12,370 nucleotides of DNA from Elainellaceae cyanobacterium. GTDB lineage: Bacteria; Cyanobacteriota; Cyanobacteriia; CAZCXK01. Made by a program: the position numbers and the translations under genes. A model generated the notes under the pieces. That model was not told where the DNA came from and searched no databases. It saw only the letters and a list, made by a program, of their open reading frames with translations. This document shows positions 1 to 2,266 of this stretch, in pieces. Numbering within the stretch: the first letter of the stretch is position 1; each line of letters starts with the position of its first letter. The stretch is taken from the NCBI GenBank assembly GCA_051117555.1, contig JBNPEG010000119.1, positions 1 through 12,370 on the forward strand, given 5' to 3'.

Positions 1-92
1 CCGTCATGCACAAACTCATCCGAATCATATACGGTGTCTTGTCTTCAGGGGAAAAATTTGACTCGGCTAAATTAGTCCCACACAACACTTGA
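1..92 (+). CDS. IS110-family (bridge recombinase-type) transposase, C-terminal fragment; 5' part lies outside the window
   Basis: Manual translation from position 3 gives VMHKLIRIIYGVLSSGEKFDSAKLVPHNT* (TGA 90-92). This matches the C-terminal AxMxKLxxIxYGVLxSGxxFD motif typical of IS110 transposases. It is absent from the ORF track because it is truncated. Confidence 0.85.
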   Translation, partial: VMHKLIRIIYGVLSSGEKFDSAKLVPHNT

Positions 93-116
93 CCTACAGT
101 GGCCTAAACAGTATCT
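1..116 (+). mobile_element. Right end of an IS110-group element, ending in ACAGTATCT (CT core at 115-116)
   Basis: Short 24-bp non-coding end after the transposase stop. ACAGTATCT (108-116) equals the left part of the IS621 donor ACAGTATCT-TGTAT. A -35-like TTGACC lies at 89-94. Confidence 0.75.
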
Positions 117-235
117 ACACAGGTCTCTACAGCACAATCAAACCGCGACGTTGTTTCTTCCTCAAACGATAGGAATATGGTCTAACACCCTCTAACATCC
201 CTCTTTACGAGTCTGAATCGGGTCTCTAGAAGATC

Positions 236-2266
236 CTAATCGGCTAGCTCTGGGGTATCAGTATCCTCGGCTGGCTCTGGGGTGTCAGTATTCTCAGACG
301 ACGAATCAGTTTCGTCTAACGTCGTGTCAATTTTATCGTCCGATTCGCCCATAATTTCCCGGACTCGCTCTTGAATTTCTAGATGTCGCTCGATACCCTC
401 AAACGCGTAGCGATCGTATCCATTTTGCTCAATTAAGGTGTCAAGATTGCGAATCCGCTCAGGGGTATCTGGATGAGTGGAAAGGGGCTCAAACGTGGAG
501 CCCCCATTTTCTTCGTATAGGGTTTGGGTGAGTCGCAGCAAGCCATCGGCAGCATAGCGAGAATTGGCTAAGAGTTGAGTACCCAGTGCGTCCGCTTGAC
601 GTTCCATCCCCCGGCTGTAGCGCAACACAGCGAGGTTGGCTGCAAAACCTCCGTAGGGAATGAACTGCAACACGTTCGCCGTAAGGTTGCCCCCGGTCAT
701 TAACTGAAAGCCGTGAGACAGCACCGCATGAGAAATTTCGTGGGCAAGCAGACCTGCCAATTCTGCCCCGGTTTCAGTTTCAAGAATCGCGCCTGCATTC
801 ACAAACACCTTTCCCCCTGGCAGAGCAAAGGCGTTGATGTCTTCATCATCGACGACATAAAACTGATAGTTAAATTCATCCCGCCCAGCCAGTTGAGCAA
901 TTTCGTTGCCGATGTCTCTGACGTATGACCGCACTTCGTCATCTCGAATCATATCGAGTTCTTGAATCGCTCGATTGGCAATGCTTTCGCCAACGGCTGT
1001 CTCGCCTCGCGCCATCGTGATGGTGGTTTCGAGGGCAGCCAGCGGACCGAACGGATTGCCCGTTAGCACAAATCCAGCCGCACCTGCCAACACGTTGCCC
1101 ACCGTTCGGCGAATCAGGCGACCTCTCATCTGCGACCGAAACCGACCTTCATACTCATCAGCAAGGGCAGAAAACTCAGATGCTTCCGAATCGTCGGCAT
1201 TGAGCAGGGCATACTGGCGAGCCGCTATCGCCGCTTCTAGCCATTGCTGATTAGCTGCCAAGAGTTCGACTCGCGCCTGCACCACCTGAGGTTCGTCGGG
1301 ATATAGGCTAGCAGCTCGTTCGAGGGTTGCCAGGGCTTCTTCCGGGCGATCGCTCTCCATCATGTACTGGGCATAGGCGATCTGCCCTGGAATAAATTCG
1401 GGATATTCGTCGCTGAGCAGTTCTAGCGGCACTTCGATGCGCGTTTCCAACCCTGTCTCCATGCCCTGCTGAACTTCGCGCCAATAGACTTGCCCGGCTG
1501 GAGATAGCTGTTCGGGATCGGTGATCGGCTGAGGACGCTCCTCGATGCCGACTTCCGCCTCGTCATCCGGTGCTTTTGCCTGCCGATAGAGCTGATCCGC
1601 TTCAGCGAATGACCCTTGCAAAAATAGGCGATCGCCCTCGATTAGTAAGGTTTGAAATTCAAGGTCGTCAGCTTCGTCGCTGTCAGCGGTTGTCGCGTCG
1701 TCTTGTTCATCGTCAGCGCCGAGTTCATCCTCGGTTTCACCGAGATCGTCATCAATCTCGTTAGCTTCGTCTAGGTCGCTATCGGTGTCTCCGAGTGAGT
1801 CGTCGATATCGTCTTCGAGGTCAGACTCATCGGGGTCGTCGATGCCTTCAAATTCATCGTCAACTCCATCGAGGCGATCGCGCTCAAGCTCGTCTAGATC
1901 GTCCAGATCGTCTTGGACATCCTCCTCCACATCCGCCAGATCGCTGACCTCGACCGGAGCAGTCGGCAAATCATTGACGTCGGTAAGCTGAATTCCTGGA
2001 TGGACGCTGAATTCGGGGAGCTCATCAATCTGCTCGACAGACTCTGTCCTAGACGGCGTAGCGTGAGCTGAAATTGGAACAGGATTGAAGATCTGAGCCG
2101 CTGTATCGCGAGTATCAATCGATTCGGTCGTAGGGTCGAGATTGGCAGACTCCGCCAACGATGGTGCTGCTGGTGTTGCAGATACAGGCAACCACAGCAG
2201 ACTCAGCGGAATTGCTCCACCCCATGCCATAAAGAGCGATCGCCAGAGGAATTTCATGATGCGCAT
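236..2266 (-). CDS. Exported M48-family zinc metalloprotease with TPR-like helical region and acidic N-terminal insert
   Basis: N-terminal signal-like peptide; INAFALPGG; HEXXH motif (AHEISH); YSRGMERQAD; STHP..ERI. TPR-like helices precede the protease domain. Confidence 0.9.
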   Translation of the reverse strand: MRIMKFLWRSLFMAWGGAIPLSLLWLPVSATPAAPSLAESANLDPTTESIDTRDTAAQIFNPVPISAHATPSRTESVEQIDELPEFSVHPGIQLTDVNDLPTAPVEVSDLADVEEDVQDDLDDLDELERDRLDGVDDEFEGIDDPDESDLEDDIDDSLGDTDSDLDEANEIDDDLGETEDELGADDEQDDATTADSDEADDLEFQTLLIEGDRLFLQGSFAEADQLYRQAKAPDDEAEVGIEERPQPITDPEQLSPAGQVYWREVQQGMETGLETRIEVPLELLSDEYPEFIPGQIAYAQYMMESDRPEEALATLERAASLYPDEPQVVQARVELLAANQQWLEAAIAARQYALLNADDSEASEFSALADEYEGRFRSQMRGRLIRRTVGNVLAGAAGFVLTGNPFGPLAALETTITMARGETAVGESIANRAIQELDMIRDDEVRSYVRDIGNEIAQLAGRDEFNYQFYVVDDEDINAFALPGGKVFVNAGAILETETGAELAGLLAHEISHAVLSHGFQLMTGGNLTANVLQFIPYGGFAANLAVLRYSRGMERQADALGTQLLANSRYAADGLLRLTQTLYEENGGSTFEPLSTHPDTPERIRNLDTLIEQNGYDRYAFEGIERHLEIQERVREIMGESDDKIDTTLDETDSSSENTDTPEPAEDTDTPELAD
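241..294. repeat. 27-bp tandem duplication in the M48 C-terminal tail
   Basis: cggctagctctggggtatcagtatcct / cggctggctctggggtgtcagtattct (24/27 identical); encodes ENTDTPEPA-EDTDTPELA. Confidence 0.8.

Follow-up and report, generated by a model that had tools for sequence, protein, structure and literature searches.

Results

The Locus and Its Features

The window, by which we mean the whole 12,370-base stretch analysed here, begins at the start of contig C14 in an assembly of 6.06 Mb and 256 contigs (Table 1). The HIP1 octamer GCGATCGC occurs 9,140 times in this genome, against about 92 expected, an excess that marks the genome as cyanobacterial. An earlier note on this DNA had placed an IS110-like C-terminus at the very beginning of the window, followed by a 24-nt element end, and both assignments hold. 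Bases 3–89 read in frame 3 as VMHKLIRIIYGVLSSGEKFDSAKLVPHNT and run into a TGA stop at 90–92, with a match to the IS110 ORFs of the relatives described below, and the 24 nt at 93–116 finish in ACAGTATCT (108–116), a terminal motif that the relatives share. Since the window begins where the contig does, the rest of the recombinase gene lies off the contig. We conclude, with a probability of about 0.9, that bases 1–116 are the right end of a multi-copy IS110-family element of the IS621 clade.

Beyond the element, bases 117–132 read ACACAGGTCTCTACAG, and the insertion site lies in the spacer 3′ of a gene for an M48-family peptidase. Between 6841 and 12195, the (−) strand carries ordinary host genes, including those for a glycine-betaine-type ABC transporter (substrate-binding protein, permease and an ATPase with CBS domains) and a sodium:solute symporter; further to the left of the transporter genes lie those for PHP-domain, DUF3500, DUF2996 and M48 peptidase proteins.

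Table 1. Features at the left border of the window and contigs that end in a copy of the right end.
Feature	Position	Strand	Basis
IS110-family (IS621-like) recombinase, last 29 codons and TGA stop	3..92	+	Translation; homologous tails
TTGACC, predicted −35 box, overlapping the stop codon	89..94	+	In silico scan of the junction
Non-coding right end (RE), 24 nt	93..116	+	Identical at 10 contig ends
Left donor half-site (LD), ACAGTAT	108..114	+	7-mer recurs in the donor-binding loop region of relatives
CT core dinucleotide, putative strand-exchange site by analogy with IS621	115..116	+	A second CT flanks the left end
Right target half-site (RT), ACACA; host DNA outside the element	117..121	+	TGTGTAG in the left end, 7/7
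"End A" remnant of a TA-flanked MITE-like repeat (ACACAGGTCTC...)	117..127	+	Same 11 bases in empty and occupied copies
End-like piece of a second MITE family (consensus ...CCCTACGGCTCAATCAAACCGTGACGTTGTTTC...), including the proposed "sibling site"	126..159	+	Genomic matches
M48-family peptidase, neighbouring host gene	236..2266	−	ORF; PF01435, E 1.9e-27
Contigs ending in a copy of the right end	C14, C216, C77, C139, C105, C163, C238, C196, C150, C54		

Relatives of the Element and Its Recombinase

Relatives were found by searching 401 genomes of the class at both the DNA and the protein level; 37 of these genomes hold a homologue (E ≤ 1e-60) of the protein encoded at one such locus, L025. 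At L025, L026 and L027, the ORFs are 324–348 aa long, carry both PF01548 and PF02371, end in ...VMHKLIRVIYGVL... and have C-termini close to the tail in the window. The L025 protein matches IS621 (PDB 8wt6) with an E of 7.6e-74 and ISCro4 (9t56) with an E of 1.5e-71. When 24 nt of the left end were used to scan species-representative genomes, eight loci were found, in Nodosilinea nodulosa PCC 7104, other Nodosilinea, Leptolyngbya sp. ULC186bin1 and an Elainellales genome.

Complete elements of 1,250–1,254 bp, with ORFs of 329–339 aa, are present at four of these loci (L066–L069), in Nodosilinea and Leptolyngbya. Their ends are 90–96% identical to those of the element in this genome: 104–110 of 114–115 positions are identical over the first 114 nt, and 105–108 of 116 over the last 116 nt. 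The tails of their ORFs differ from the 29 residues in the window at as few as one position, as in the 338-aa ORF of L069 (28/29 identical). These nearest full copies carry both recombinase domains (329-aa ORF of L066: PF01548, E 4e-29; PF02371, E 6.2e-26), and the L066 ORF matches IS621 (8wt6) with an E of 3.1e-70 and ISCro4 (9t56) with an E of 2.4e-70. In the whole assembly studied here, a Pfam profile search returned 0 matches to PF01548 and PF02371. The shortest contig of this assembly is 2,018 bp, and a contig made of a repeat of about 1.2 kb would fall under a 2-kb length cut-off, which would account for the absence of the element body. Because that body (about 300 codons and the donor-binding loop) is unassembled, the domain content and the donor loop are taken from the 90–96% identical foreign copies.

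Several partial or doubtful relatives were also seen. A copy of about 552 bp in Nodosilinea nodulosa PCC 7104 (L070), partly N-masked, has both ends intact and may be an internally deleted, non-autonomous derivative. When the left end was searched for as DNA in 61 relatives, it was found only in this genome and, as an orphan stretch, in a genome of another family of the class (G009). This stretch (L015:1501–1602) is intergenic and 75% identical to nt 6–114 of the left end. In it, 7 nt of the left guide are missing, and no recombinase gene adjoins it; it is an orphan remnant of a putative bridge-RNA region. An IS110 element on an E. coli plasmid (L071), tried as a source of IS621-type ends, is a different element without such ends. 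In a soil-metagenome DNA run, contigs carry right ends of relatives that are 90–95% alike, with the match stopping at 118–119; among the sequencing runs matched by the window stretch, there was no RNA run.

Copies, Junctions and the Core Dinucleotide

Window bases 1–118 recur with 100% identity on ten contig ends and the sequences diverge beyond 118. The left end was located by clustering contig ends together with a motif search: eleven contig ends carry one identical left end, TGTATATAAGCGG..., which starts with TGTAT directly after ACCCAAC-CT, and two additional contigs terminate exactly at ACCCAACCT. This genome holds about 10–13 identical copies, a number which makes the element appear to have been active recently.

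The left junctions read ACCCAAC-CT-TGTAT in all eleven copies. Comparison of the copies, whose alignment the earlier note had suggested for deriving the target consensus, gave ten identical right ends and the right junction ACAGTAT-CT-AC in 10/10. The five nt past the right CT are ACACA at seven of the ten junctions, and ACATT, ACTGA and ACTAT at one each. Empty copies of the host repeat read ...CCTCAACCCAACCTACACAGGTCTCAT..., that is, the left flank, a single CT and the right flank, so that the unoccupied repeat (...CCTCAACCCAAC-CT-ACACAGGTCTCAT...) has one CT only. Hence, from both sets of junctions and the single CT in the empty sites, the core is the CT at 115–116, and the AC at 117–118 belongs to the host. 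The ends have no terminal inverted repeats, and CT stands on both sides with no other duplication. With the right and left ends read from the junctions, the donor of the circle would be ACAGTAT-CT-TGTAT, so that the donor half in the window is IS621-like, as had been proposed.

A TA-flanked repeat of about 75 bp on contig C111 (about 46,280–46,360, +), which contains GCCTAAACAGTATCT-ACTTTAATCC and has no element attached, holds the last 15 nt of the right end (17 nt including the AC after CT), GCCTAAACAGTATCTAC. This solo tail looks like what remains of an inserted copy that was deleted between two GCCTAAA stretches.

Putative Guide Segments in the Left End

The left end assembled here is 114 nt long and stops before the donor-binding loop. 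It contains ACCCAACCT at nt 65–73, which is the left flank and core in the same sense, and TGTGTAG at nt 91–97, which is the reverse complement of CT and ACACA. Together, the two putative guides agree with the flanks ACCCAAC-CT-ACACA at 16/16 positions, as expected from the earlier suggestion that guide segments would be found in the non-coding left end.

The same comparison was made across the relatives. Starting from 30 loci, seven without a right end resembling ACAGTATCT were dropped, as were three without a CT-TGTAT left start and two with fewer than 5 nt of right flank, which left 18 relatives and the element of this genome (n = 19). Against their own flanks, the guides agree at a mean of 13.7 of 16 positions, with at least 14 in 12/19; against the flanks of another element (n = 336), the mean is 10.9 of 16 and at least 14 are reached in 1.2%. 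The core, which the elements share, and the frequent AC both lift this non-cognate baseline. Among the cyanobacterial relatives, guides and flanks vary together.

The segments that match the flanks lie in a loop with a recurrent fold. In a MAFFT alignment, a column-wise count of pairs gave 69.8% paired cells versus 61.6% in shuffled sequences, and sliding the partner by −1 column gave a higher covariation score than the true register; because the subgroups are out of register, this count is only moderately supportive, and constrained folding of each sequence was used in its place. With the guides kept unpaired, 21 of the 22 loop segments folded into an outer stem, an internal loop and an inner hairpin, compared to 230 of 1,100 shuffled controls. 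The stems vary by subgroup (GGGGAGG/CCTCCCC, GCAGAGA/TCTCTGC, GTAAAAG/CTTTTAC and AAACCAGG/CCTGGTTT). Without constraints, the left end of this genome's element folds into the same two helices (−33.6 kcal/mol, z = −2.35). RNAalifold on ten whole left ends gave no useful consensus (−2.9 kcal/mol), and the left ends of five loci had 0 matches in Rfam at E up to 1.

The two guides differ in how closely they follow the flanks. At three of the ten insertions, the right flank fits the right guide at AC only, and the right guide of the Nodosilinea-type copies (TTCGT or CTCGT) matches their flanks (ACAGG, ACAAA) in part; pairing of the right guide beyond 2–3 nt is thus unnecessary in nature. In an alignment of this genome's left end with those of L064–L070 (A2), columns 91–93 read TGT here and in L068, TTC in five and CTC in L069. 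Among the 90–96% identical left ends, the first 100 columns include 13 that vary; three of these are the distal positions of the right guide and none falls in the left guide, whose 9 nt including the core are invariant in these near-identical sequences. In this genome, the right guide is TGTGT, a full match to the local MITE end ACACA.

Candidate Donor Loop, Predicted Junction Promoter and Proposed Mechanism

In 16 of 24 left ends of relatives, a same-sense copy of the LD is followed by ACAAG 15–90 nt further on, compared to 73 of 2,400 shuffles. This candidate donor guide changes with the right end, as in L047 (ACGGTAT) and in L058 and L060 (ACAGCAT). The left ends of four Nodosilinea-type copies have ACAGTAT and GCAAG, in which the G would form a G-T pair, by analogy with the pair between G161 and dT12 in IS621 (PMC11208158).

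Joining the two ends in silico gives TTGACC, 17 nt and TATCT|T across the junction, a match to the consensus only. A −35/−10 pair with a spacer of 17–18 nt was present in 23 of the 25 elements examined. This suggests a sigma-70-type promoter that would be complete only in the circular junction of right and left ends.

By analogy with IS621, the element of about 1.25 kb would excise as a circle, in which the joined right and left ends would form the donor ACAGTAT-CT-TGTAT. The junction would complete the promoter (−35 TTGACC, −10 TATCT|T), from which a bridge RNA would be transcribed from the left end. The loop segment ACCCAAC with CT would then pair with the bottom strand of the left target and TGTGT with AG with the top strand of the right target, and the DEDD/serine recombinase would exchange strands at the CT core of ACCCAAC-CT-ACACA.

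The Target Repeat

The natural target reads ACCCAAC-CT-ACACA. Seven such sites are occupied and 11 perfect ones are empty: the 14-mer ACCCAACCTACACA, for which we estimate about 0.05 occurrences by chance, is found unoccupied 11 times and is always followed by G/AGTCTCATATTT. At seven of the ten right junctions, the sequence past the core continues as in the empty sites. The target consists of the 3′ arm and the tail of a hairpin, GTTGGGTT-loop-AACCCAAC-CTAC, and lies 34 bp inside MITE-like repeats with the ends TA-AGTAGGTGGG ... CCCACCTACT-TA. These repeats have terminal inverted repeats, as MITEs do, and TA on both sides in 12 of 20 paired copies (78–379 bp). Their end motif occurs 73 times genome-wide. 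By lying within such repeats, the site is offered to the element in many copies. The repeat at the window is atypical, since it departs after 117–127 from the usual ...ATATTTAATTAGTCCCACCTACTTA and continues as CTACAGCACAATCAAACCGCGACGTTGTTTC.

On the opposite strand, the target reads GTAG and then a palindrome, GTAG-GTTGGGTT-loop-AACCCAAC, and GTAGG[TA]TGGGT occurs 70 times. GTAG-headed REPs are associated with RAYT transposases. The five loci in this genome with PF01797 (Y1/RAYT transposase) have no copy of this motif within 1.5 kb. The REP-like CTAC target of the earlier note stands as to form, since CTAC, the reverse complement of GTAG, trails an arm of the hairpin; as none of the Y1-transposase loci has the motif nearby, we call the target REP-like only as regards its form.

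The hairpin arm ends at the core in seven of the eight sites of the element's own clade (Nodosilinea-type copies). Among more distant relatives, a hairpin-arm target was found in 3/20, versus 34 of 1,000 random control positions, and at only three of twenty this leaves the idea of a broad REP specialist weak. From the variable right guide, the conserved donor and the frequent CT-AC (14/20 relatives), it is conceivable, if rather doubtful, that the right target guide is the fast-evolving part, retuned to the repeats of each host, and that hairpin repeats with a CTAC/GTAG tail are the specialty of the IS621 clade, in enterobacteria as in cyanobacteria. If so, the clade would track such hairpin repeats by changing its guides.

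The TA-flanked repeats themselves are modular, with differing hairpin blocks joined at GTAG/CTAC boundaries on many contigs (for example, C29 25,048–25,334 and C47 12,303–12,614), as if small elements were nested at CTAC sites. The 12-nt stretch AATTAGTCCCAC in the recombinase coding tail (window 70–81) recurs in the end of the target repeat (...TTTAATTAGTCCCACCTACTTA), a match that is compatible with chance, as we estimate about 0.7 occurrences to be expected.

Discussion

Alternative Explanations

The window copy could be a dead fragment, either a solo right end or an internal deletion, of a repeat family that consists partly of relics. The unassembled body of the element would fit this, as would the 17-nt right-end tail that stands alone on C111 and the 552-bp copy at L070. 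However, at least 116 nt of the window are identical to the other nine ends, with no mutation, and the numbers of left ends (11–13) and right ends (10) agree. Moreover, a contig-breaking repeat of about 1.25 kb that is lost under a 2-kb cut-off is what would be expected of a full multi-copy element, and we regard a dead fragment as improbable. It is less probable still that the element ends at CTAC (118) and has a 4-nt core. In favour of such a core, CTAC stands at 10/10 right junctions and the soil-metagenome relatives share the stretch to 118–119, but AC is missing from the left junctions, which are ACCCAAC-CT-TGTAT in 11/11, the empty sites have a single CTAC, and AC follows CT in only 14 of 20 relatives. 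On these three grounds, AC is target sequence, which the right guide would read.

The adjacent GGTCTCTACAG (122–132) had been put forward in the earlier note as an empty sibling site, that is, a second target of the same element. Its resemblance to a target is a CT followed by AC. Compared to ACCCAAC-CT-ACACA, the left half, which the left guide would have to match, agrees at 0/7 positions and the right half at 3/5. With the core, the 14-mer at 120–133 scores 5/14, as CT sites in the window most often do, whereas ACCCAAC is present at 11/11 left junctions. GGTCTCTACAG aligns instead with CCCTACGGCTC in a second repeat family (consensus end ...CCCTACGGCTCAATCAAACCGTGACGTTGTTTCTTTACGGCCCCTAAG), to which window bases 126–159 belong, and window 115–159 or 127–159 is matched at 11 other genomic places with 80–91% identity. 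The sibling site thus finds no support and is very improbable. There is also very little to recommend a choice of target by the protein alone, with the matches between left end and flanks as a by-product, for instance as picked-up target sequence. The role of the guides is predicted here from sequence, which leaves some room for such a by-product, but the matching segments are fixed in a conserved scaffold of stems and loops and change with the flanks in 19 elements. One guide has the same sense as the target and the other is its reverse complement, as in the solved IS621 complex, and the recombinase is a clear homologue of that of IS621. A multi-copy, IS621-like element with a CT core and a putative bridge RNA is thus the reading that we prefer.

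Comparison with Known Elements

IS621 of Escherichia coli belongs to the IS110 group of the IS110 family (PMC11208160; PMC11208158). Its left target guide pairs with the bottom strand and its right guide with the top strand, around a CT core (Hiraizumi et al., PMC11208158), and a junction promoter and an RNA from the left end are described for it (Durrant et al., PMC11208160). A donor oligonucleotide given in the methods of PMC13396178 contains ACAGTATCTTGTAT, and an extended-data legend gives the wild-type target as ATCAGGCCTAC. The element described here resembles IS621 in its pair of PF01548 and PF02371 domains (E 3e-70 in the PDB for the nearest full copy), in a CT core on both sides, a short RE, a long left end and no inverted repeats, and in a left guide with the sense of the target top strand and a right guide that is its reverse complement. 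It also has a −35 box in the right end that would need the junction for its −10 box, and a target in a CTAC-tailed palindromic repeat. From the right end ACAGTAT-CT and the left end TGTAT, the donor is letter for letter that of IS621 (14 nt).

Unlike IS621, this element resides in a cyanobacterial host, and its target specificity differs, as had been anticipated: the left half is ACCCAAC here and ATCAGGC in IS621, while CT-AC is shared. At the commonest site, the match to the right guide extends 5 nt past the core (ACACA). The hairpin that holds the target lies within TA-flanked MITE-like elements, whereas that of IS621 lies in E. coli REPs. Protein identity is only moderate, with 44% between the related L025 protein and IS110 transposases of enterobacterial plasmids. 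ISCro4 (9t56), likewise a bridge recombinase of solved structure, is the best PDB match of the nearest full copy (residues 10–324) and comes from another host.

IS4321 and IS5075, of the IS1111 group, reportedly insert in the terminal repeats of Tn21-type transposons, and so are said to share with this element a target inside the repeat of another mobile element within the IS110 family. They reportedly differ in belonging to another subgroup, in having the guide RNA in the right end and in having subterminal inverted repeats.

ISCro4 and IS621 fall in one 30% cluster in Supplementary Table 1 of Durrant et al. (PMC11208160), where the row IS621;ISCro4 includes the phylum Cyanobacteria (Durrant et al. 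2024, PMC11208160). The target lists of the same study contain natural targets with ...TCAACCCAACCTAC..., such as TGCTTCAACCCAACCTACG... and GACGTCAACCCAACCTACTTT... (PMC11208160); these supplementary lists describe neither the host repeat and copy number nor this genome. A literature search for IS110, cyanobacteria and bridge RNA returned no paper that deals with such elements by its title or abstract. The element is unexceptional within a family already known, and its mechanism is, by analogy, that of IS621; novelty is limited, as the system, its cyanobacterial members and the target motif stand in the published supplements, and the element leaves the knowledge of how bridge recombinases work unchanged. 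Its value lies in being a well-resolved natural bridge-RNA recombinase system, one in which the occupied and empty sites directly reveal a 14-nt target placed in a hairpin repeat borne by another mobile element. It may also serve as an extra orthologue for bridge-recombinase engineering.

For annotation, the element accounts for some of the breaks between contigs in this assembly. No fewer than 20 further repeat families lie at its contig ends, and groups of 12 and 11 contig ends share the terminus CTCATATCTTGCACCT. These repeat families at contig ends imply that insertion sequences cause much of the fragmentation of the assembly.
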